Part shown: positions 13,988 through 48,074 of the stretch, piece after piece | Layout: each line of letters opens with the position of its first letter | Numbering within the stretch: the stretch's first letter is position 1 | From: a virus | Lineage: Duplodnaviria; Heunggongvirae; Uroviricota; Caudoviricetes | Direction: 5' to 3' (one strand) | DNA length: 48,765 bases | Virus record (IMG/VR): IMGVR_UViG_2877982868_000002 | Made by a program: the position numbers and the translations under genes | The notes under the pieces: model-generated | Database searches by the model: none | What the model was told of the DNA's origin: nothing | Seen by the model: only the letters and a program-made list of their open reading frames with translations

Positions 13988-14211
13988 TTATGGCGGTATT
14001 TTATATTCCTGATATTTACGGACGCTTTTACCTGGTTAATTTCGATAACGTGAAGGTGATTTCACTGGCCGAAAATAAAGAATGTGGCGATTTACTTTTT
14101 GAATTTAATGACCGCACACGAATGGTGATATCTGCCGGACTTGATCGCGAAGGTGCGACAGAAGTTTACAGCGGAATATGCCGTTCTGTTGGTGCGAAAC
14201 AAGTCAGCTAA
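13984..14211 (+). CDS. Hypothetical early protein
   Basis: 75-aa ORF overlapping B stop; position of Mu kil-region genes. Confidence 0.4.
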   Translation: MIMAVFYIPDIYGRFYLVNFDNVKVISLAENKECGDLLFEFNDRTRMVISAGLDREGATEVYSGICRSVGAKQVS

Positions 14212-14478
14212 ATGAGGTGTTATATGAATATGCAATCCTGCGGTAACAAAATGAATTTATTCGACTCCCTGAACAGCGCGCGCCGTCTGACCGAACTTGC
14301 CGGTGCGGTACTGGAACGCAGTAAGCGCTATCCGCAACGTTTTGCACTGAAAACCACGCCGCCGGTAGGCAACGTGCAGGGAACCGGTGAAATTGAAATC
14401 ACCATACAGACCAACGGCCTGCGCCGCCGTGTGAAGGCCACCCGCATCAGCGGCTGCACGGTTTACTGGGAGGTGTGA
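14212..14478 (+). CDS. Hypothetical early protein
   Basis: 88-aa ORF; alternative ATG at 14224 with SD gaggtg. Confidence 0.4.
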   Translation: MRCYMNMQSCGNKMNLFDSLNSARRLTELAGAVLERSKRYPQRFALKTTPPVGNVQGTGEIEITIQTNGLRRRVKATRISGCTVYWEV

Positions 14479-14479
14479 G

Positions 14480-14761
14480 GTGAAAAAAAATCTCATTGCA
14501 TGGGCGTGGTCGAGTGGTCTTATTGAGTTTGGTTACGTCCTGCCGGAAGGTGCATTGCCGATAGTTGCCGGAAAGCCTGCCACGGTACGGCATGTGATTG
14601 AGGTTATGGCGCGTCATGGACGTGATGAACAGGAGCAGTTACTGGTTCCGGGGATACCGGAAGCGGTGACGGAGGAAGAAGCCTTTAATGCCATGATTCG
14701 GTTCTGCCGTGAGGTCAGACGCCGGGTCAGTTATCCAAACAGAACGAGGACCAGAGGATGA
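14480..14761 (+). CDS. Hypothetical early protein
   Basis: GTG start at 14480 preceded by ggaggtg; 93 aa; tightly packed in operon. Confidence 0.45.
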   Translation: MKKNLIAWAWSSGLIEFGYVLPEGALPIVAGKPATVRHVIEVMARHGRDEQEQLLVPGIPEAVTEEEAFNAMIRFCREVRRRVSYPNRTRTRG

Positions 14762-15030
14762 GTAAAGTCGTACGCATTATTTTCGAATACAAGGAGCACG
14801 TTATCCATAAAAACGCGGATGGAACAGTGCGCATGGGGATAAGTCTGGACATACGTTCAACCGGGATAAAGCAGAAAGGTGATGGACCTGCCATGATTTT
14901 TGGGGTGGTTATGCTCGCGGAAAGCAGAGACTTTGCTGAACTTGTGGCAATGAAAGCCAGTGCGCTCATGAAAGATATGAGCATGCGTTCCGGGGTTATT
15001 AAAGGTAATGAATTTAATCAGCAGGGGTAA
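14758..15030 (+). CDS. Hypothetical early protein (paralog 1)
   Basis: 90 aa; N-terminus MSKVVRIIFEYKEH shared with next gene. Confidence 0.45.
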   Translation: MSKVVRIIFEYKEHVIHKNADGTVRMGISLDIRSTGIKQKGDGPAMIFGVVMLAESRDFAELVAMKASALMKDMSMRSGVIKGNEFNQQG

Positions 15031-15034
15031 TTCC

Positions 15035-15328
15035 ATGAGCAAAGTACGCGTTATTTTTGAATTTAAGCATGTTTCGCATGACGAAAAACCGGCAGGCAAT
15101 GACTGTGTTGAAGTGCATGAAAAGATTGGTGTGGATGTAAAAACAGAACGTGATACGAATAACAGGCCGACGTCACTCTGTGACGTTTATGTAAGTATTC
15201 TCCAGTATCACAGTCCTGAAATTATTCAGTTTCTCTCAGCGGAATTTCAGGCATCTGTACAGGCTTTTGGGGCGGATGCCATCATTAAACGCCACCGCGT
15301 GCATAAAGCATCAGGCACACTGCAATAA
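15035..15328 (+). CDS. Hypothetical early protein (paralog 2)
   Basis: ATG at 15035 (MSKVRVIFEFKH...), 97 aa; N-terminal similarity to preceding ORF. Confidence 0.45.
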   Translation: MSKVRVIFEFKHVSHDEKPAGNDCVEVHEKIGVDVKTERDTNNRPTSLCDVYVSILQYHSPEIIQFLSAEFQASVQAFGADAIIKRHRVHKASGTLQ

Positions 15329-15339
15329 GGAAAAACAAA

Positions 15340-15870
15340 ATGGCAAAACGCGTTACAAAATTAAAGGCCGCAGCCGAGGCTGCACCGCAGACCCGCGAAG
15401 AGGTCAGCCGCGATATCCGCACCCTGGGCGATATTCAGCGAGAGGCGCTGCGGCTGGAAACGGCGATGAATGATGAAGTGGCAGAAATCACCGCCCGTTA
15501 TACGCCGCAAATTGAAAACCTTAAAAAAGAAATCAAAGTGCTTTTTAAGGGGATTCAGGACTGGTGCAAAACCAACCGAGATGAGCTGACGAACGGCGGC
15601 AAAACAAAAACTGCCAATCTGACCACCGGCACGGTGTCATGGCGGCTGGGAAATCCATCATGCAGCGTCAGCCGTGATGTGGAAGGCGTGATTGAAATGC
15701 TGCGCCTTATGGGGCTTGAGCGATTCATCCGCACGAAAGAGGAAGTGAACAAGGAAGCCGTCCTGGCGGAGCCGGATGCGGTGAAAGGCATTGCCGGTAT
15801 AAAGGTGAATAAAGGCGCTGAAAGTTTTTATGTCGAGCCTTTTGAACAGGACGCCGGACTGAATAAATAA
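15340..15870 (+). CDS. gam: Host-nuclease inhibitor Gam (Mu Gam-like, DNA-end binding)
   Basis: 176 aa; strong similarity pattern to Mu Gam (TREEVSRDIRTLGDIQRE..., WRLGNPSCSV); SD upstream. Confidence 0.85.
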   Translation: MAKRVTKLKAAAEAAPQTREEVSRDIRTLGDIQREALRLETAMNDEVAEITARYTPQIENLKKEIKVLFKGIQDWCKTNRDELTNGGKTKTANLTTGTVSWRLGNPSCSVSRDVEGVIEMLRLMGLERFIRTKEEVNKEAVLAEPDAVKGIAGIKVNKGAESFYVEPFEQDAGLNK

Positions 15871-15967
15871 CACCACATTAAATCTTTAAATATCACATCG
15901 TTTTAATTATGGCGCTCGCGTCAGGGGACTGCCTGCGCCTGAAAGCTGAAAATAAGGAATCGGAAAC

Positions 15968-16510
15968 ATGGCATATTTTTATTTCAAATTAGACATAGTG
16001 TACACAAATAAATATTTAACCGAATATCAGCGGGATGTTTTACCGCTACGCAACAGTATTCTTCGGGCATTACTGAAAAATACAGGCGCTGCCGGATTGC
16101 GCTTAAAGCCGTTCGCCATGGACGTAATCAGTGAGTTTTATTTTTCTGGTTCTCTGCCTGCGGGCTGGCGTAAGCGCGATGATGTGGCTTTTATCGGGGG
16201 CGGACCGTGCTTTATTGCCAGACCTGATGAGTCATGCCCTGAAGGTCCGGCGATTGCCGCAATGGTTGAAGCCGCTGAACGCGAGTTAAGAAAGCGTCCT
16301 GATTTCCTTGTCTGGCTCTGTGAAAAGCTGGGGGTAATGAGAATCCCCTCCATGTTTAACACGGACTCCTGGTGGACCCCGTCACTCTCCCGTGATGCCC
16401 TGTGCGTGGTGTTTAAAGTAGGAACTTATGGCAGGGAAATAAAAGGGGGTATTCCTGAAGAATGCCAGGAGATTAAACATTCTGAATATGTGGCGCTGAC
16501 GGAGGAATAA
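15968..16510 (+). CDS. Hypothetical protein (semi-essential region)
   Basis: 180-aa ORF with SD aaggaa; AT-rich region. Confidence 0.45.
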   Translation: MAYFYFKLDIVYTNKYLTEYQRDVLPLRNSILRALLKNTGAAGLRLKPFAMDVISEFYFSGSLPAGWRKRDDVAFIGGGPCFIARPDESCPEGPAIAAMVEAAERELRKRPDFLVWLCEKLGVMRIPSMFNTDSWWTPSLSRDALCVVFKVGTYGREIKGGIPEECQEIKHSEYVALTEE

Positions 16511-16513
16511 TTC

Positions 16514-17047
16514 ATGATTGATGCAAAAGTGCTTGAAGGGGTTAAAAACTGGCTGCGTATTTACGGACGTCTGACCTGCGGTATTCTGGCTGAAAAAATG
16601 AATATGCCGCCATCCTCCATGGTTTATTTTCTGCGTGATGCGGTTGATGCAGGCGTGCTGACGGAATGTAACGGTTTTTATGATATTCCGCGTCCCCGCC
16701 CGGTGCAGCCGGTTCGTCGCAAATGCAGCCAGGAGTCTGCGGCTGATGATGTTCAGTGGTGCAGCTTCAGAAAATCCCTGCCGTGGATTGAAGGGCATGA
16801 TATTCCGTCGATGGCGTGGGAATTTGCTCAGGGCGTGCTGACCTGTGAAACCGTTTATGTGGTGGCTGAAGTTGATGAGCAGGCCATGAAAGAAGGCGTG
16901 CCCCAGTTTGTGATGTCGTATATCGACATCCGCCTGGGCGTCATTATCTGCGGTTTAAGCGGCTGGAATATCACCTCGCGCGTTCTGCGTTACCTGATTG
17001 TTGACCGGACGGCCGCGCCTGCCGGGATATCAGCGGAGGTGGCGTAA
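16514..17047 (+). CDS. Hypothetical protein (semi-essential region)
   Basis: 177-aa ORF tightly coupled to upstream gene. Confidence 0.45.
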   Translation: MIDAKVLEGVKNWLRIYGRLTCGILAEKMNMPPSSMVYFLRDAVDAGVLTECNGFYDIPRPRPVQPVRRKCSQESAADDVQWCSFRKSLPWIEGHDIPSMAWEFAQGVLTCETVYVVAEVDEQAMKEGVPQFVMSYIDIRLGVIICGLSGWNITSRVLRYLIVDRTAAPAGISAEVA

Positions 17048-17562
17048 TGTTCTTTAAAACATCAAACCCTTCCGCGCTGGCTGCGTGGCAAAAATACCAG
17101 CAGGACTGCCAGACGGTAAAAGATGAGGCGAAACGCCTTGAGGCCGTGCTGAATGTTGCGTGCCGGTCGGTATTTGAATTCAGTATCAGTGGTTTTTGTT
17201 TTAAGGGACTGCGTTTTACGGAGGACAAATATCCTTTTCATCGTGATTTATGGCGAAAACCAACTGCGTCGAATGGCTGGAGCTGCACACCGCGCACATC
17301 ACGTATTCCCAAAGCCCTGCGCGTTGCCTCTGACGAACTTAACAGTCTGTGGCGTGAATATTCGCCCGTCACGTATGCCAGAACCGATGCACTGTTGTTC
17401 TGGCTGGGCATTGATTTCTCGGCAATCCTGTTTGGCCCTGTGGAGTGGTTCTGCGTTGACGATGTGATTTACCTTCAGTGCGGCGTAAAACCCGCAAAAC
17501 AGAAAATGACCGAAATTCTGTCTGATGAGTTTTATGCTGCTGAAAAGCGAGTCAGGGGGTGA
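17047..17562 (+). CDS. Hypothetical protein (semi-essential region)
   Basis: 171-aa ORF; start overlaps previous stop. Confidence 0.45.
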   Translation: MFFKTSNPSALAAWQKYQQDCQTVKDEAKRLEAVLNVACRSVFEFSISGFCFKGLRFTEDKYPFHRDLWRKPTASNGWSCTPRTSRIPKALRVASDELNSLWREYSPVTYARTDALLFWLGIDFSAILFGPVEWFCVDDVIYLQCGVKPAKQKMTEILSDEFYAAEKRVRG

Positions 17563-17565
17563 TGC

Positions 17566-18117
17566 ATGATGATATTACAACCCATGGGGAGAAAAGGCCG
17601 TGCACCCGCTCATGTTCGCGCATGGACACCTGAAGAAGATGCGCTGCTGATTGCGCTTTATCCATCCACCCCGGTTAAGGATATTGCTGTCAGGATAAAA
17701 AGAAGTTTCTGGGGTGTACATAACCGGATTGTTTTATTACGCGGTACTTACCCGGAGTTGCTCAAATGCAAACGCCTCAGATTTAAACCTGATGAAGATA
17801 AATTTATCCGAAAAAATGCCAGAACAATGACCGGTAAGCAAATAGGAGAATATCTGGGGCGAGACCGGGATTCTGTCCACAATCGGGCGCGATATATTGG
17901 CGTAAGCATGAAAAAATACGGAGAGTTGCTGCCCTTCACCCGCATACCTGACGATGATGTTCGTCTTATTCGTGAATTACGGGATGCTGAATCACCACGG
18001 CGTCTTACCTTTAGGGAAATCGGCGAGAAATTTGAATTATCCGAGGGCACGGTGAGTTTTATTTATCACCGTCGTCGGACTGCCGAAGATGTTGTATTAC
18101 GGGAATTAATGCCATGA
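17566..18117 (+). CDS. Hypothetical DNA-binding protein with three internal SANT/Myb-like HTH repeats
   Basis: 183 aa; three ~45-aa repeats with pattern .PEEDxxLI...K.IA..I.RS...VHNR (WTPEEDALL, FKPDEDKFI, IPDDDVRLI). Confidence 0.5.
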   Translation: MMILQPMGRKGRAPAHVRAWTPEEDALLIALYPSTPVKDIAVRIKRSFWGVHNRIVLLRGTYPELLKCKRLRFKPDEDKFIRKNARTMTGKQIGEYLGRDRDSVHNRARYIGVSMKKYGELLPFTRIPDDDVRLIRELRDAESPRRLTFREIGEKFELSEGTVSFIYHRRRTAEDVVLRELMP

Positions 18118-18425
18118 TAACGACATTATTTGTTGAATCAGATGAACCCCTTGTGTGTGCCGTCGGAATGCCGGTCTGTGGCGGAACGCTGACCGGTGTT
18201 TATTTCGGGGATTTGCGCGGTTATCCCTGGCATTCACTGAATGATGCTTTCCCGCCTGATATGGAGGCTGTCGTGCTGATTGTTCAGTATGGTGACCAAC
18301 AGGAACTGCGCATCGGCCATATGGGGTATGAAGGCTTTTTTATTGATGAAGAAACCGGAGCCTGCCTTGAAGATGAGGACGGACAGGTGACGCACTGGTG
18401 CCATATTTCAGCTTTACCGGAATGA
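18114..18425 (+). CDS. Hypothetical small acidic protein
   Basis: 103-aa ORF, D/E-rich; start overlaps previous stop. Confidence 0.45.
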   Translation: MITTLFVESDEPLVCAVGMPVCGGTLTGVYFGDLRGYPWHSLNDAFPPDMEAVVLIVQYGDQQELRIGHMGYEGFFIDEETGACLEDEDGQVTHWCHISALPE

Positions 18426-18439
18426 CGGGAGGTGAATGC

Positions 18440-18790
18440 GTGAGAAGTTATATTGATAATGAAAAACTGAAGACAATCAGCGACTGTCTTAGCTTGCTGG
18501 CAAAAATAAAAGAAACCATTGAAGAGATTAAATTTCAGCTTGAATACGAACCCTGTGGCGATGATACATGGCGTAACTCTGCCAGAAAAGCACTGGCTGT
18601 CTTTCAGAAACAACGCCGGACTGTTGAATACCGCCTTGCTGTATTGCGCCAGGAGGAAAAGGAAAGAAATATAAGACGTCATGAACTCGTTAATGATTTT
18701 CTTGTTCGTGAATTAAAGGAGCGTGTGCCGGAGTCGGTATTTTTTGAGTGTGAGGCTGTTGCCCGTAGCAAAGCACTGGAAACTGATTAA
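18440..18790 (+). CDS. Hypothetical protein
   Basis: GTG 18440 preceded by gggagg SD; track ORF begins 18398; predicted coiled-coil-like. Confidence 0.4.
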   Translation: MRSYIDNEKLKTISDCLSLLAKIKETIEEIKFQLEYEPCGDDTWRNSARKALAVFQKQRRTVEYRLAVLRQEEKERNIRRHELVNDFLVRELKERVPESVFFECEAVARSKALETD

Positions 18791-18802
18791 ACAGGCAGGT
18801 GA

Positions 18803-19138
18803 ATGATGAGTATTGAATTAAGATCGTCTTATGAATATCGTAAAATTCTCATCGCCGGAGGCATGAAACCGGAAGATGCAGAAAAAATTGTTTCTTTTAT
18901 GGATAAAGAATGTGACAAACGGGATATGCCAGAAATTATTATGGATGACATGATTCTGCATTCAGCCGTAGCGTTAAGCCCGTTATGGATTGTGCATTCT
19001 CTTGCTGAAATTGCCAAAGGCACCGATAAACAGGCAGCTGTTGCTGCCCTTCAGACGCTTAATGAAATGCGTATATCTCCACGCCCGACATTAATACATA
19101 TGATTCTCTCCAGTATGGAGGATAAAGCAAATGAATAG
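18803..19138 (+). CDS. Hypothetical small acidic protein
   Basis: 111-aa ORF with SD. Confidence 0.45.
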   Translation: MMSIELRSSYEYRKILIAGGMKPEDAEKIVSFMDKECDKRDMPEIIMDDMILHSAVALSPLWIVHSLAEIAKGTDKQAAVAALQTLNEMRISPRPTLIHMILSSMEDKANE

Positions 19139-19328
19139 TCTACCCGCTGGATGGGCGCGGCCACTAATGGCCAGGAAGCATCATTTTTTTAAAACAGGCG
19201 AAAATATCAGTATATGTGGACGGTGGTTATATCTGGCTCATAATCGCGAGCCGGATACATTTGAAAGCCCTGATGACTGTGCCGAATGCCGCAGAAGAGT
19301 GAATAAGGAGAAAGATAATGGACAATAG
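19131..19328 (+). CDS. Hypothetical small Cys-containing protein
   Basis: 65 aa; C..C spacing (CGRW...CAEC) suggests zinc ribbon. Confidence 0.35.
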   Translation: MNSLPAGWARPLMARKHHFFKTGENISICGRWLYLAHNREPDTFESPDDCAECRRRVNKEKDNGQ

Positions 19329-19614
19329 TTCTCTGTTGTTCTGGTGCTTATATATCACATCCTTTTTCGGCGCATTTGTTATTACCCGGTGGTTATGTCG
19401 AAAAATCATCTGCTTTTTTGATAAAAGACATCCGGTTGAACGGGCGGCTGATGCGCTCATTCAGCAGGCCATTGTGTTATATAGCGGTGAATTTTTCTGC
19501 CGAATAACAACCAGAGATGGCTGGCACATAATGATTATTCCACCAACACACCATGCCCGGTGGGATGAGGCAGAAAAGGCTTTCCATGTCCGTAAAAAGG
19601 TAAATACGGTATGA
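19318..19614 (+). CDS. Hypothetical membrane protein
   Basis: 98 aa; N-terminal hydrophobic helix LLFWCLYITSFFGAFVI. Confidence 0.4.
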   Translation: MDNSSLLFWCLYITSFFGAFVITRWLCRKIICFFDKRHPVERAADALIQQAIVLYSGEFFCRITTRDGWHIMIIPPTHHARWDEAEKAFHVRKKVNTV

Positions 19615-20120
19615 GAGGAAAACTGATATCCGCCATTCATGTGGCAAAGCGCGAGCTTGCCCTGGATGATGAGACTTATACATCCGCGCTGCTGGCAGCC
19701 ACCGGCAAAACCAGCTGCCGGGATATGTCACCGGATGAGTTATCCCGCGTGCTGGATGTTTTCAAAAAACGCGGTTTTAAAGTGCGCCAGAAGCCGGTTA
19801 ACCAGGCCTTAAAACCGGGTACGGTGACCGCCAAAATTCGTGCCATCTGGAGGGTGATGCACCGGCAGGGCTTTATCTCTGATGGTGCGGAAACCGCCCT
19901 TAACCGCTGGGTGAAATCGCAGACGGCCGCGCAGAACGGTGGCGAAGGTGTGGCAAACTGGCAGTGGCTGGAGCAACACCCCGCCCTGGCCTCAGATGTG
20001 CTGGAGCGTCTCAAGCGATGGCACCGCCGCAAAATGCTGGCCGCGATGGGAATGCCCGAACGCACGCTGATGGGGTATGACGCCGTTTGCAGGCAGTATG
20101 AAAAATCACTTCCCCGTTAA
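19611..20120 (+). CDS. gemA: GemA-like regulatory protein (Mu gp16 family)
   Basis: 169 aa; position just upstream of mor; N-terminus MRGKLISAIHVAKRELALDDETY typical of gp16/GemA family. Confidence 0.7.
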   Translation: MRGKLISAIHVAKRELALDDETYTSALLAATGKTSCRDMSPDELSRVLDVFKKRGFKVRQKPVNQALKPGTVTAKIRAIWRVMHRQGFISDGAETALNRWVKSQTAAQNGGEGVANWQWLEQHPALASDVLERLKRWHRRKMLAAMGMPERTLMGYDAVCRQYEKSLPR

Positions 20121-20189
20121 CCCCAAATCCCGCCACAGCGCGGGATTTTTATTTTAAACTTACCGGGAACGCGAGAACCGGAGGCTGAT

Positions 20190-43946: not shown

Positions 43947-44507
43947 ATGCTGATTGGCTATATACGCGTATCAACAAATGACCAGAACACAGGTTTACAA
44001 AGAAATGCGCTGGAATGTGCAGGATGTGAGCAGATTTTTGAAGATAAAATGAGTGGTAAAACGACACAGCGGCCGGGACTGAAGCGGGCACTGAAGAAAC
44101 TAAAACCCGGTGACACACTGATGGTCTGGAAACTGGACAGGCTGGGGCGCAGTATGCGCCACCTTGTTGCGCTGACAGATGAATTACAGCAACAGGGGAT
44201 AAATTTTCGTAGTCTTACTGACAACATTGATACGTCAACCCCCATGGGGCGCTTCTTTTTTCACATAATGGGTGCGCTGGCAGAAATGGAGCGTGAATTA
44301 ATTGTCGAACGGACACGGGCTGGTCTTGCAGCTGCCCGTGAAAGGGGACGAACCGGCGGCAGACCCCGTCGTCTCACGCAGGAACAATACGAGCAGGTCG
44401 GGCGTTTACTGGCCGGGGGTGTCAGTCGAAGACAGGTGGCACTTATTTTTGATATCGGCCTTTCAACCCTTTATCGTTATTATCCTGCGAGCGTTTCGGA
44501 AAAATAA
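43947..44507 (+). CDS. gin: Serine DNA invertase (Gin/Hin/Pin/Cin family)
   Basis: 186 aa; MLIGYIRVSTNDQ catalytic Ser motif, resolvase core, C-terminal HTH; SD aaggaagg. Confidence 0.9.
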   Translation: MLIGYIRVSTNDQNTGLQRNALECAGCEQIFEDKMSGKTTQRPGLKRALKKLKPGDTLMVWKLDRLGRSMRHLVALTDELQQQGINFRSLTDNIDTSTPMGRFFFHIMGALAEMERELIVERTRAGLAAARERGRTGGRPRRLTQEQYEQVGRLLAGGVSRRQVALIFDIGLSTLYRYYPASVSEK

Positions 44508-44606: not shown

Positions 44607-46646
44607 ATGACGTCCAAATGGGTTCAACTATCATCAATGCCCGGAAACTTTACTGTTAAAGTTTCCGGTGGTACAGCGGCATTTCTTGAGGCTCCCTTTC
44701 CTCCGGCCGAAACAAAAGGAGGAATGACATTTGCTGACTGTCTCATCAGTTTTAATACACGGGATTGCCTGTGGGTAAGGCCAGTATCCGGTGATCCGAG
44801 TGTGGAAATTACCGGAGCGGGTATTGGTGCGGTCATTCCGTTAAGTGCTGATGTTGCCGGTACTGCTGAACCGTCAGACTGGGATAATGCTGAAACACAT
44901 ACCCGTCCGTCAGGAAATGAAACTGCTTCCAGCTCCCCTTCCTGGTATTACGTGGTGGTTCTTGCTGGTCAGTCAAACGGTATGGCTTACGGTGAAGGTC
45001 TGCCACTGCCGGAGACATATGACCGCCCCGAACCGCGTATTATGCAGTTAGCCCGTCGCAGTACAGTCACGCCGGGAGGTAAAGCCTGTCAGTATAACGA
45101 CATCATTCTGGCCGACCACTGTCTGCATGATGTGCAGGATATGAGTGGAAAAAATCACCCGAAAGCGGATGTGGCTAAAGGGCAATATGGCACCGTGGGT
45201 CAGGGGCTTCACATTGCCAAAAAACTGCTGCCGTTTATTCCGGCAGATGCGGGGATTCTGCTGGTTCCCTGCTGCCGTGGTGGTTCTGCATTCACGGCGG
45301 GTGCTGACGGCACGTACAGTGACAACACGGGTGCTTCAGAGGACTCAGCCCGCTGGGGTGTGGATAAGCCGCTGTATAAGGACTTAATCAGCCGGACAAA
45401 AGCGGCACTGGCGAAGAACCCGAAAAACCGCCTGCTTGCTGTGGTGTGGATGCAGGGCGAGTTTGATATTGATGCGAAGCCGACGGAGCATTCCGCGCTG
45501 TTTCTGGCGATGGTGGAAAAATTCCGCGCAGACCTGGCTGAACAGGCGGAACAGTGTACCGGTGGCAGTGCTGCTGGCGTTCCGTGGATTTGTGGCGATA
45601 CCACGTATTTCTGGAAACAGAAAAATGAACCGGCATACCAGGCAATCTATGGCGGCTACAAAAACAAAACAGATAAAAACATTCATTTCGTTCCATTAAT
45701 GACAGATGAAAATGACGCGAATGTACCCACCAACAATCCGGCAGAAGACCCGGATATTGAATCCATTGGTTATTACGGCTCAACGTGGCGTAACAGTGCC
45801 GCCACCTGGACATCTGCGGACCGGGCCAGCCATTTCAGTTCATGGGCACGTCGTGGGATTATTTCCGACCGTCTGGCCACGGCAGTTCTGACTCATGCGG
45901 GGCGAACCACAGTAAAAGCCGATGTTCCATCTTCTGAAACTGAAGCACCAGTGCCGTCACCTTCAGAAACTGAAGCAGTAACCACAACACTGCTGTCTTA
46001 TCGTGTCAGTGAGTCAGAAGGAAATCTGAAAGCCCAGGGCTGGGAGCCGGCTGGCGGTAAAGCTGAAATTATCAGTGATGCAGGAGGCACAGGTGGTAAG
46101 GCAATGAAACTGACCAAGGAAACAGGTAAATCATCTTGGTATCTGGATCATGATGCCGGTACTGGTGCTGAACTGCTGAAAAATGGTGGTTTAATCAGTT
46201 GTCGTTTTAAAGTACCTGGCGACCTGGTGGCAAACCAGTATGTCATGGGGCTTTACTGGCCGGTTTCCTCTCTGCCGCAGGGTGTCACCCTGACAGGGGA
46301 TGCAGGGAATAATCTGCTGGCATCGTTCTACATCCAGACAGACGCAAAAGACCTGAATGTGATGTACCACAATGCAAAAGTGGCAACAAATAACCAGAAA
46401 CTGGGAACCTTTGGTGCATTTGATAATGAATGGCATACGCTGGCCTTCCGTTTTGCAGGAAATAACAGCCTTCAGGTTATTCCGGTTATTGATGGTCAGG
46501 ATGGTGCCGCGTTTACCCTGACGCAGTCACCAGTAGGAACTTTCCCGGTGGACAAACTCCGCGTAACGGATATCACAAAAAATGCAACTTACCCGGTGCT
46601 GATTGACAGCATTGTGGTGGAAGTGAAAAAAGCGGTAACAGAATAA
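44607..46646 (+). CDS. Multidomain carbohydrate esterase, SGNH/SASA-like (candidate sialate O-acetylesterase, NanS-p-like) with C-terminal putative glycan-binding domain
   Basis: 679 aa; VVLAGQSNGMAYGEG motif typical of SASA/SGNH esterases; Ser/Thr/Pro linker with SETEA duplication; located in cargo position between gin and com. Confidence 0.55.
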   Translation: MTSKWVQLSSMPGNFTVKVSGGTAAFLEAPFPPAETKGGMTFADCLISFNTRDCLWVRPVSGDPSVEITGAGIGAVIPLSADVAGTAEPSDWDNAETHTRPSGNETASSSPSWYYVVVLAGQSNGMAYGEGLPLPETYDRPEPRIMQLARRSTVTPGGKACQYNDIILADHCLHDVQDMSGKNHPKADVAKGQYGTVGQGLHIAKKLLPFIPADAGILLVPCCRGGSAFTAGADGTYSDNTGASEDSARWGVDKPLYKDLISRTKAALAKNPKNRLLAVVWMQGEFDIDAKPTEHSALFLAMVEKFRADLAEQAEQCTGGSAAGVPWICGDTTYFWKQKNEPAYQAIYGGYKNKTDKNIHFVPLMTDENDANVPTNNPAEDPDIESIGYYGSTWRNSAATWTSADRASHFSSWARRGIISDRLATAVLTHAGRTTVKADVPSSETEAPVPSPSETEAVTTTLLSYRVSESEGNLKAQGWEPAGGKAEIISDAGGTGGKAMKLTKETGKSSWYLDHDAGTGAELLKNGGLISCRFKVPGDLVANQYVMGLYWPVSSLPQGVTLTGDAGNNLLASFYIQTDAKDLNVMYHNAKVATNNQKLGTFGAFDNEWHTLAFRFAGNNSLQVIPVIDGQDGAAFTLTQSPVGTFPVDKLRVTDITKNATYPVLIDSIVVEVKKAVTE

Positions 46647-46792
46647 AAAAATCCCGCCGGTCATGATATGGCTGGCGGGAGCTACCTAACCCATAAAGGA
46701 AAATAAAAATACTCCCGAAGGAGTGGTTATCAGTCGCTTCGATGTTTTTACCCGATAACGAATTATGTAGTCAATATCAAAGGTAAGGTTAT

Positions 46793-46975
46793 ATGACATT
46801 CGTTCATACAATGCTGCTTTATTTCTGCGCTGTGGTCAGTGCGTTATATCTGGTGAGCGGTGGTTATAAGGTCATCAGAAATTATATTCGCCGTAAAATT
46901 GATGATGCGGCAGCTGAAAAACTCAGTAAAACAGCACAGGCACCGTCATCCCCAAACGACCCGACCCCGCTCTGA
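46793..46975 (+). CDS. Small membrane protein
   Basis: 60 aa; SD aaggtaagg; TM helix MLLYFCAVVSALYLVSGG. Confidence 0.4.
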   Translation: MTFVHTMLLYFCAVVSALYLVSGGYKVIRNYIRRKIDDAAAEKLSKTAQAPSSPNDPTPL

Positions 46976-47010
46976 TAACGGGGCAATATACCTGCAAAAG
47001 GAGAATATTC

Positions 47011-47256
47011 ATGCCAGAGATTAAAGGCACGGTTACTGAAGAGCTTGTCAAACAGGCACTTTATTCTGAAGAAGTGAACCGCGTGCTGAAGGCGCAGGTT
47101 CGCAAGGATTTTGAGGCACAAATCGACGCATATGTTGATGAAGTGCTGGCCCGAATGGTTGGCCGTTCTCCGGCTGAAAACAGCACGGAAAATGATCCTC
47201 AACCCGTAGAGCAACCAGAGCCGGTTCAGCCCGGAACTGACGGTACTATGATGTAA
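47011..47256 (+). CDS. Small acidic hypothetical protein
   Basis: 81 aa; strong SD aaaggagaa; followed by hairpin terminator. Confidence 0.45.
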   Translation: MPEIKGTVTEELVKQALYSEEVNRVLKAQVRKDFEAQIDAYVDEVLARMVGRSPAENSTENDPQPVEQPEPVQPGTDGTMM

Positions 47257-47265
47257 CAATACCGA

Positions 47266-47285
47266 CCGGCAGGTTTCCCTGCCGG
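47266..47285 (+). terminator. Intrinsic terminator-like hairpin
   Basis: CCGGCAGG-tttc-CCTGCCGG perfect 8-bp stem immediately after stop of 47011-47256, followed by T-rich gtttgtt. Confidence 0.4.
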
Positions 47286-47574
47286 GTGAGTTTGTTAATG
47301 CACGTTTTGTGTATTTTCCCTCCTGGGAGAACAGGCAGGACATATCAGCATCCTGAAACAGGAAGCATTTTTGGGTTTGTATGTCTTGCCATTTTGAGAT
47401 CGAGAACGGCGATAGATGAGCTGTAAGGGAGTCTTACAGGCAGGGCAAACAGGCTCTTTCATCCATGATAAAGATCTCCTTTTTATGCATCTCTGCTTTA
47501 CAGGAGACCGGGGAATATCATAGGATACGCCACGAGCTCGAAGTAAAGCATTGATGCAAGTTTTTACAGATTGA

Positions 47575-47600
47575 CCCAGCATAGTTCCAGCTATGCTGGG
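47575..47600. terminator. Strong hairpin flanked by T-runs (possible bidirectional terminator/insulator upstream of com-mom)
   Basis: CCCAGCATAG-ttccag-CTATGCTGGG perfect 10-bp stem; TTTTT upstream and TTTCACTTTT downstream. Confidence 0.45.
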
Positions 47601-47652
47601 TTTCACTTTTATGTAGTATCCTGTTGATTTGAAACATACTACATATACGCGT

Positions 47653-47826
47653 GATCCTACCTTCACTGTATAAAAAGTCAATAAAATGATCATTTTATGA
47701 TCGTTTTCACCACCTAACTCTTCGTTTTCTTTAAGTAAATAATCACCTCCCTGAATCATTGTTGATGACTTTTCAATCTATTTGTTGTATCAATTAAACA
47801 AATCGAATCGATCGTTTTTGTCGATC
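47653..47826. promoter_or_regulatory. com-mom regulatory leader with clustered Dam (GATC) sites
   Basis: GATC at 47653, 47688, 47699 (three within 50 bp) and at 47810, 47823 (in CGATCG context), all upstream of com ATG. Confidence 0.4.
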
Positions 47827-47873
47827 GATTGCATGAGAAAGGCATCAACAACAAAGCAGGAGGTTATGCGGTC

Positions 47874-48074
47874 ATGTATCGAAACATACGGTGCCGACAC
47901 TGCAATAAGCTACTGGCACGGGCCAGTTTCAGTTATCTGGAAGTAAAATGTCCGCGCTGTAAAACCCTCAATCAAATCACATCTCCGAGCGCCACAGAGC
48001 ACCCCACATACACAAGGAAATCCTGTCGTGGGGAACAGAAAGCAAGTCACATCCCGAATCATCAGCACGCCTGA
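47874..48074 (+). CDS. com: Com translational activator of mom (zinc-finger)
   Basis: 66 aa from ATG 47874 with SD ggagg; [11 protein letters not shown]...CPRCKT Cys4 motif as in Mu Com; overlaps mom start. Confidence 0.75.

Follow-up and report, generated by a model that had tools for sequence, protein, structure and literature searches.

What controls expression of a DNA-modification operon in a prophage is the question raised by a 617-base-pair (bp) stretch that lies immediately upstream of the com and mom genes in an Sp18-type Mu-like prophage of Escherichia coli (positions 47257-47873 of the window, as the whole analysed stretch of 48,765 nucleotides (nt), itself such a prophage, is termed here). 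Dam and OxyR control of mom is textbook biology of phage Mu, and an earlier note on this DNA had read the stretch as a single long, non-coding and structured leader of com-mom under the same epigenetic control, exerted through clustered GATC sites. The present analysis favours, with a probability of roughly 55% for the composite picture including its mechanism, a different answer: the stretch is the junction of three units, a com control region, an accessory cassette and a hairpin, and not one com-mom leader. Dam/OxyR control of com-mom is plausible on sequence grounds, acting via a pair of CGATCG sites close to com and not via a cluster of three GATC sites further upstream.

The operon itself is of the Mu type. 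A Com zinc-ribbon gene (com, 47874-48074, + strand; Zn_ribbon_Com in Pfam with E=1.9e-12, also annotated in RefSeq, 47% identity to Mu Com), preceded by the Shine-Dalgarno sequence AGGAGG at 47858-47863 (+ strand), overlaps the downstream Mom gene (mom, 48028-48765, + strand; Pfam Mom with E=4e-77, 79% identical to Mu Mom) at the prophage's right end, and the GTG start codon of mom sits within a CCCCAC...GTGGGG hairpin. Copies of the 617-bp stretch with 100% identity are present in many chromosomes of O157 and other enterohaemorrhagic E. coli (EHEC), and related copies were found in 232 of 5426 complete E. coli genomes (about 4%), O157:H7 being among the carriers.

The modularity of the stretch became evident when the window was aligned with six diverged copies from E. 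coli and two that differ in structure, and then with viral and metagenomic contigs. The stop codon of the upstream gene DUF826 and com bound a slot that is filled by at least four unrelated inserts, the slot lengths being about 475, 630, 735, 870 and 945 bp. In the AST198-type prophages the slot holds only a + strand open reading frame (ORF) of 66 amino acids (aa), in the L027/L029-type prophages an unrelated minus-strand ORF of 97-100 aa, and in the HCP4S3/L050-type the 66-aa ORF together with another small minus-strand ORF and the structured module described below, with one unit duplicated. Only the last about 95-110 bp before com are common to all slot types, with weaker similarity reaching back to about 47764; this com-proximal regulatory module (47779-47873, + strand) is delimited by the alignments and by partial blast matches covering positions 523-615 of the query. 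The three-GATC cluster and all the hairpins fall outside the block shared by all types. The block at 47295-47740 is a replaceable accessory cassette, read from the minus strand, and the slot beside com looks like a place of small accessory gene exchange. No Pfam match was obtained for the cassette ORFs of 97, 68 and 66 aa, and a scan of metagenomes yielded few new alleles and several chance matches.

Within the cassette lies a conserved 255-bp module (47486-47740) with three stem-loops, for which the RNA fold z-scores are -6.4 on the minus strand and -4.5 on the + strand; the module was not seen outside Mu-like prophages when other genomic contexts were checked. Sites combining a hairpin with a T-run number nine in the region 46500-48100, as compared to 1.2 expected from shuffles. 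Stem-loop I (47487-47558) is a long imperfect inverted repeat that folds, TGCATC..TGCTTTAC ... GTAAAGCA..GATGCA, and its left end is the exact start of the homology with the HCP4S3/L050-type cassettes. Stem-loop II (47573-47602) corresponds to the perfect 10-bp hairpin with T-runs on both sides that the earlier note had correctly described (stem 47575-47584/47591-47600), with a stem that extends to 12-13 pairs around the loop TTCCAG. No other segment of the module, which is nearly invariant otherwise, varies as much, and a 12-bp hairpin is kept in every type; the arm types, read by eye as MAFFT misaligns the hairpin arms between types, are GACCCAGCATAG/CTATGCTGGGTT, GGCCCAGAATAG/CTATCTGGGTC and AGGTCCAGATAG/CTATCTGGACCT, besides mosaic forms. 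The stem is conserved, while the T-run changes from TTTCACTTTTAT to CGCCCTTTATG or CCTCCCTTTATG in other types, and stem-loop II is therefore not simply a terminator. Stem-loop III (47610-47645; TATGTAGTAT ... ATACTACATA) has a 10-bp stem and a 16-nt loop. RNAalifold recovered 50 pairs in the module, only one of them compensatory because sequence diversity is low. A permissive-threshold Rfam scan of 46600-48100 returned chance-level matches only (the best with 18.9 bits against a gathering score of 50 for tsr24, all with E>0.1), and a literature search for an Sp18 small RNA or mom study gave no data on this region. It was also observed that a unit of about 79 bp, comprising the right arm of stem-loop I and stem-loop II, is tandemly duplicated in L003 (2522-3477), L050, L059 and L136; the hairpin variant differs between the two copies, and there are mosaic recombinants between the hairpin types.

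Next to the stem-loops stands the three-GATC cluster (47653-47702), whose sites at 47653, 47688 and 47699 lie within 50 bp, as had been noted before; three GATCs within 60 bp occur at only three places in the 48.8 kb. The stretch as a whole is enriched, with seven GATCs in 617 bp against a window mean of 2.1, and only 1.8% of 617-bp windows reach seven, despite the AT-richness of the stretch. A promoter scan identified a promoter-like site on the minus strand (-35 TTGACT at 47681-47676, -10 TAGGAT at 47659-47654), whose -10 is overlapped by GATC 47653, and a facing one on the + strand within stem-loop I (TTTACA-18-TAGGAT, 47497-47526); both have TAGGAT as their -10, and every allele conserves them. 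An 18-bp perfect palindrome, ATAAAATGATCATTTTAT (47681-47698), is centred on GATC 47688, and GATC 47699 lies one helical turn further on. This palindrome exceeds every other perfect palindrome of the window in length, is unique there and invariant in all module-bearing alleles, and by its sequence looks like an operator or UP-element. Both GATC 47688 and 47699 are kept in all alleles with the module, and 47653 is lost in the DETEC-type alleles. The palindrome was also considered as a repeated operator and rejected, there being no second copy in the window even with three mismatches.

The simplest reading of the module would be a minus-strand unit consisting of a sigma-70-like promoter (47681-47654), an untranslated leader of about 170 nt with the three stem-loops, a strong Shine-Dalgarno sequence, a small ORF encoding a 55-aa zinc-ribbon protein and, at its end, a hairpin at 47266-47285. 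The three-GATC cluster and the palindrome would then tune the cassette promoter and not com. An unlikely though far from negligible alternative, partly compatible with this model, is that 47486-47740 is a cis-antisense RNA control unit, in which convergent promoters would give overlapping transcripts and a + strand small RNA ending at stem-loop II or III would pair with the leader of the minus-strand small-gene mRNA. Specificity would be determined by a kissing loop in stem-loop II, and this role would account for its being hypervariable and at the same time a hairpin in every case. The facing promoter-like sites with their shared and conserved -10 are in line with such a unit, as are the concentration of variation in the loop and upper stem of stem-loop II with the structure kept, the duplicated unit of some phages, the different small ORFs behind the same module, and one-sided changes, which in stem-loops I and II produce G-U pairs if the + strand is read and in stem-loop III if the minus strand is. 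However, no Rfam family is matched, promoter-like matches in the region are no commoner than in shuffles (2 against 3.2 expected), the terminator T-run is not conserved, only 1-2 pairs are truly compensatory at the low diversity of a set drawn from E. coli prophages only, and the encoded proteins are not toxin-like.

The com control region is where the element shared with Mu is found. An inverted repeat, AATCGATCG-TTTTTGT-CGATCGATT (47806-47830), carries the Dam sites 47810 and 47823, both in the CGATCG context reported earlier and spaced by 13 bp, the only GATC pair with this spacing in the whole window. The arms of AATCGATCG-N7-CGATCGATT and the 13-bp spacing are identical to those of Mu GATC II/III, the aligned sequences being AATCGATCG-tttttgtc-GATCGATT here and AATCGATCG-gtaataca-GATCGATT in Mu, and the CGATCG pair is, on this alignment, homologous to the Mu GATC pair. 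The position of the third Mu site, 18 bp upstream, reads ATCAAT here and has no GATC. A pattern scan of IMG/VR for the two arms retrieved 58 loci, in about 47 of which com follows at a fixed distance of 70 (Mu type), 43 (window type), 44 or 49 nt; the spacer varies among these loci, and the arms, for which the scan selected, are invariant. A set of loci anchored on Mom includes five from Enterobacterales with a 13-bp GATC pair 50-85 nt before com, four of the five with an extra GATC 18-19 bp upstream as in Mu and the Edwardsiella locus with one 31 bp upstream, and two from marine gammaproteobacteria that have no GATC upstream of com.

The repeat overlaps a candidate site for OxyR. An OxyR-consensus-like site of 37 bp, ATCAATTAAACAAAT-CGAATCG-ATCGTTTTTGTCGAT (47789-47825), agrees with the OxyR tetramer consensus at 13 of 20 positions, which is the score of the validated Mu site, and does so in the same register relative to the GATC pair. 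Further phased matches are located at 47758 (14/20) and at 47776 and 47780 (13/20 each), the one at 47758-47794 being the maximum for the whole window. Among 1000 local dinucleotide shuffles, scores of at least 13 were reached in 2.4% and of at least 14 in 0.1%, and four positions with at least 13 never occurred. The repeat at 47806-47830 is proposed to be an OxyR half-site blocked by methylation.

The distance from the repeat to com is 43 nt here against 70 in Mu, that is, 27 nt shorter, and the segment that is absent contains, in Mu, the C-binding site (CCCCAATAACC), the T6 run and the TAAGAT -10; the arrangement of Mu Pmom, with a C site between the GATCs and the -10, a 19-bp spacer and a T6 run, is not found here. 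The window encodes a single Mor/C homolog (20190-20615), 39% identical to Mu C, where Mu has two. The late-promoter motif CCGCAAARCCYGCC-N16-TAYGCT occurs exactly only at the lys-like and I-like promoters (20620-20655 and 28512-28544), and the motif search found nothing comparable as an activator site before com. The loci of long architecture carry C-site-like sequences, among them CCATAACCC in L169, which matches the CATAAYCCC of the four late promoters of Mu. For the short architecture, the best candidates for a -10 follow the repeat at 7-18 nt: the candidate com -10 of the window (47837-47848, + strand) is TG-a-GAAAGG (47837-47842) or CATCAA (47843-47848), and candidates elsewhere are TGaTAGATT (Edwardsiella), TGgTATCAT (L067) and TATCAT or TATCAA (sister E. 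coli lineages). Transcription of com would then start at about 47849-47856, which would place the GATC pair at about -45 to -27, over the -35 region, a predicted geometry that resembles those of Mu, with its 22-nt leader, and of P22 gtr, where the start lies 33 bp after GATC4 (PMC2909390). With the element 27 bp closer to com, where the C-activator site of Mu would be, and no recognisable site for the single Mor/C-type activator of the phage, the arrangement is therefore more like P22 gtr or agn43 than Mu Pmom.

In the proposed mechanism, com-mom would be transcribed from this short and weak promoter with a start about 20-25 nt before com, and the ATCG-N7-CGAT half-site over or beside the -35 region would form, with the adjacent left half-site, an OxyR-type operator. 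OxyR would bind the unmethylated pair and occlude RNA polymerase, whereas methylation of the pair by Dam would exclude OxyR and permit com-mom transcription, after which Com would activate mom translation, as in Mu (PMC3378877). Two readings that go further, jointly and without excluding each other, are put forward only tentatively and are doubtful as a combination: firstly, that com-mom of Sp18-type prophages has lost its C-activator site and has an agn43/gtr-like OxyR-Dam operator over the core promoter; and secondly, that the 255-bp module is an undescribed sense/antisense RNA expression platform. If the first is true, lysogens could vary epigenetically in their expression of the DNA-hypermodifying enzyme (or, in sister prophages, of a C5-methyltransferase), which would then not be confined strictly to the late lytic phase; if the second is true, different small accessory genes would be plugged in behind a module with a hypervariable central hairpin, facing promoters and a Dam-marked palindrome, beside the anti-restriction locus.

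It is improbable, on the other hand, that the CGATCG repeat is the operator of a dimeric phage protein (the Mor/C homolog or another regulator) and not of host OxyR, the GATCs being incidental or serving SeqA or Dam otherwise. A near-perfect palindrome with 9-bp arms is typical of dimer operators, the repeat sits where an activator would be in the short architecture, and the arms are invariant with a variable spacer. However, the same arms are present in Mu, for which binding by OxyR and dependence on Dam have been established, with C binding at another place (PMC3378877, PMC4461284). Moreover, Mu C and the homolog of this phage share only 39% identity and have entirely different target sites otherwise, and in its ATCG-N7-CGAT form the repeat agrees with the OxyR half-sites of P22 gtr.

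The small gene of the cassette is a 55-aa zinc-ribbon ORF with a CPxC...CPxC pattern (47295-47462, minus strand; MKEPVCPAC...ICPACSPRRENTQNVH), preceded on the same strand by the Shine-Dalgarno sequence AAGGAG at 47481-47476. In the relatives it begins 4 nt upstream (MDKEP...), and the conserved form is M(D)KEPVCPACKTPLQL...ICPACSPRRENTQNVH. The repeated motif ACAGGCAGG to which attention had been drawn earlier (47331 and 47436, two of the three copies in the whole window) is the reverse complement of CCT GCC TGT, the codons for Pro-Ala-Cys in both CPAC knuckles. All 9 distinct alleles have the ORF intact, and it is under purifying selection, seven of its 12 distinct substitutions being synonymous and five non-synonymous as against 23% synonymous expected (p=0.0085). 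Its zinc-ribbon matches in Pfam and PHROG were all sub-threshold, and an AF2 (AlphaFold2) model of the protein, with a mean confidence score (pLDDT) of 69, gave no fold match, a Foldseek search against PDB returning none with E<1. In the HCP4S3 and L039 types this place behind the same structured module is taken by another small minus-strand ORF, whose differences are mostly synonymous in a hand comparison of L039 with L050.

RefSeq annotates at this place a minus-strand hypothetical protein of 154 aa (WP_115801860.1, 47295-47759), of which the upstream part covers 47463-47759. All alleles retain the C-terminal 55-64 codons of this frame; the long ORF of the present lineage results from the joining of two frames by a 1-nt insertion (GATAAAG to GATGAAAG). 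PGAP labels it 'frameshifted' in six of six diverged relatives. The upstream 50 codons, with 9 synonymous and 22 non-synonymous substitutions, do no better than the other two frames, and the upstream part spans the three stem-loops and the 18-bp palindrome. The segment 47463-47759 is most likely not coding, and the RefSeq ORF is probably a lineage-specific fusion and a mis-annotation. That the 154-aa protein is nevertheless a genuine gene divergent from com, with hairpins and GATCs incidental to its coding sequence, is very improbable. A run of 154 open codons in DNA of 41% GC has, on a rough estimate, a chance of about 6e-5 per frame, the protein is annotated by PGAP and PHROG 26524 matches its residues 1-104; yet, in addition to the frameshifts and the missing synonymous excess, there is no Shine-Dalgarno sequence before the ATG at 47759, and the PHROG was probably built from annotations of the same locus.

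The third unit is a GC-rich hairpin, CCGGCAGG-TTTC-CCTGCCGG (47266-47285), just 3' of the DUF826 stop codon, whose 3' arm contains the cassette junction. It forms a terminator-like end of the upstream + strand late/moron genes and, on the opposite strand, of the small minus-strand ORF. Relatives retain the stem and have a proper T-run there; in the window the hairpin has no T-run that passes the terminator scan, and its Rfam match is weak and confined to a terminator segment.

Least probable of all is the view that the whole 600 bp is a + strand com-mom leader, with the trio 47653-47699 as the Mu OxyR/Dam trio and the hairpins as attenuators, since, against the + strand promoter-like site at 47497-47526, the resemblance of stem-loop II to an intrinsic terminator in this lineage, the + strand fold z-score of -4.5 and the high GATC density, it has to be set that AST198-type and L027-type prophages keep com with mom or dcm and lack both the trio and the hairpins, that the trio is spaced by 35 and 11 bp and not by 18 and 13 as in Mu, that no OxyR-like site at the trio is among the top consensus matches, that the T-run after stem-loop II is not conserved, and that the leader in Mu is only about 22 nt by primer coordinates (PMC4461284). 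The description as a leader of com-mom lacks support for all that lies to the left of about 47765-47779, which is replaceable cassette absent from other com-mom prophages, and the hairpins taken for a long structured leader are part of this exchangeable cassette. The term non-coding holds for part of the stretch and is wrong for 47295-47462, where the conserved small ORF is read from the minus strand. As for Mu-type Dam/OxyR control, a Mu-type element is indeed present, in the form of the CGATCG pair; its counterpart is not the three-GATC cluster, which is 175-220 bp away from com and belongs to a cassette that other com-mom and com-dcm prophages do not have.

Several observations weigh against the composite picture favoured here. 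The invariance of the arms in the viral pattern scan is circular, and the Mom-anchored set, the only independent one, is small, with one genome per species. The OxyR consensus is AT-rich and degenerate, so that 7/10 per half-site is weak in absolute terms, and there are just two GATCs, not the three of Mu and agn43. In this lineage the candidate com -10 is a very poor one, and no patch of the com module is less conserved. With regard to the cassette, the promoter-like matches at chance level and the conflicting strand hints from wobble and mismatch patterns, which favour the + strand for stem-loops I and II and the minus strand for stem-loop III, count here as well; the first knuckle of the zinc-ribbon ORF has a Cys-to-Tyr change in some alleles; and the ORF is an orphan, the homologue search having given near-identical E. 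coli sequences only and none beyond these prophages.

The remaining gene calls on the + strand follow RefSeq annotation and Pfam. The gin gene (43947-44507) is followed by a SASA/DUF6645 esterase gene (NanS-p-like, 44607-46646), DUF1378 (46793-46975) and DUF826 (47011-47256, with its stop codon at 47256). Mu has nothing in the place of the last three, which stand between gin and com (44607-47256) and form a trio typical of the late regions of Shiga toxin (Stx) and lambdoid phages. A distant blastn search of a phage collection revealed no similarity between the 617-bp stretch and Stx or lambdoid late regions; its sole matches were to an inserted copy of the same Mu-like element in two Stx phages. 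At the left end of the window, an open frame of more than 3227 codons runs off the end and terminates at 9684, and is presumably a host gene for a giant protein beside the left end of the prophage. The distribution of GATC is uneven elsewhere too: the early region 14143-20813 has a sole GATC, at 18822, as compared to about 3.4 per kb overall, and com and mom together (47874-48765) have none in 892 bp, a length for which the window average predicts about 3, against the seven in the 617 bp upstream.

Sister prophages were observed in which a 350-aa DNA cytosine methyltransferase takes the place of mom behind the same com (L004, 3134-4340, NZ_AP043606; L010, NZ_CP116067; and the viral loci L021, L028 and L060). 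The annotated GTG start of the methyltransferase is the GTG of mom at 48028 (...CCTGyCGTGGGGAACA...), which places the junction of the swap just behind the start codon and leaves the presumed Com-responsive hairpin for initiation in place. Replacement of mom behind com by other DNA methyltransferases, including adenine methyltransferases, is known (PMC3299994), and no report of a C5-methyltransferase version behind com was found in the literature.

Three aspects of the locus appear to be new: the short and apparently C-site-less architecture of the com promoter; the probable error in the RefSeq 154-aa ORF, a mis-annotation that hides a 55-aa zinc-ribbon gene and a structured, RNA-like module; and the exchangeable small-gene cassette with a conserved structured module and a hypervariable hairpin. 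Mom-type DNA modification is toxic and is tightly gated in Mu. A widespread prophage lineage that keeps the Dam/OxyR element and drops the activator site suggests a different logic for the timing of DNA modification in lysogens, and this bears on restriction evasion and horizontal transfer in EHEC.

Comparison with known systems places the cassette close to moron and accessory slots. Like these, the insert is AT-rich (38-46% GC against 55%), carries promoter-like and terminator-like signals of its own, differs in content among otherwise collinear prophages and adjoins an anti-restriction locus; unlike described morons, it has various small ORFs behind one conserved, highly structured leader module. 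Dam-sensitive promoters with a GATC in the -10 region are known from IS10 pIN and IS50. GATC 47653 similarly overlaps the -10/+1 of the minus-strand promoter-like site, with the further GATCs 47688 and 47699 just upstream and one helical turn apart, but the promoter here is a consensus match only, there is no transposase and GATC 47653 is lost in some alleles. As regards type I toxin-antitoxin or cis-antisense cassettes, the module has a structured leader and convergent promoter-like sites, and its ORF encodes a basic zinc ribbon and not a hydrophobic protein.

The com control region is best compared with Mu, P22 gtr and agn43. Regulation of mom in Mu by Dam, OxyR, C and Com is documented (PMC3378877, PMC4461284). 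In the Mu locus (L005) the GATCs are at 2160, 2178 and 2191, spaced by 18 and 13 bp, and com starts at 2269; transcription starts at 2247 by primer coordinates, which puts the GATCs at -87, -69 and -56 and leaves a 22-nt leader (PMC4461284, PMC3378877). The window resembles Mu in the overlap of com with mom at the right end of a Mu-like genome, in a ATCAATTAAA box upstream of the repeat, and in a strong Shine-Dalgarno sequence with a short predicted leader. It differs in having 3.3 kb of moron genes and the cassette between gin and com, gin abutting Pmom in Mu. In P22 gtr the OxyR half-sites are TTGATCG-N7-CGATCAA, with GATCs at -110/-97 and -46/-33, 13 bp apart, and Dam methylation abolishes OxyR binding (PMC2909390). 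The gtr operon has two GATC pairs in alternative sites spaced 32 bp and switches ON and OFF, and agn43 has three GATCs in a single site; the window has one GATC-bearing half-site with two GATCs, and its neighbouring half-site is 22 bp away, as in Mu, so that neither of the arrangements that mark a phase switch, alternative GATC sites or three GATCs in one site, is seen. With P22 gtr and agn43 it shares a half-site of the form (G)ATCG-N7-CGAT(C) in which two Dam sites are spaced by 13 bp, and just as the GATC3/4 pair of gtr lies over the core promoter at -46/-33, the pair in the window is predicted to lie at about -45 to -27.

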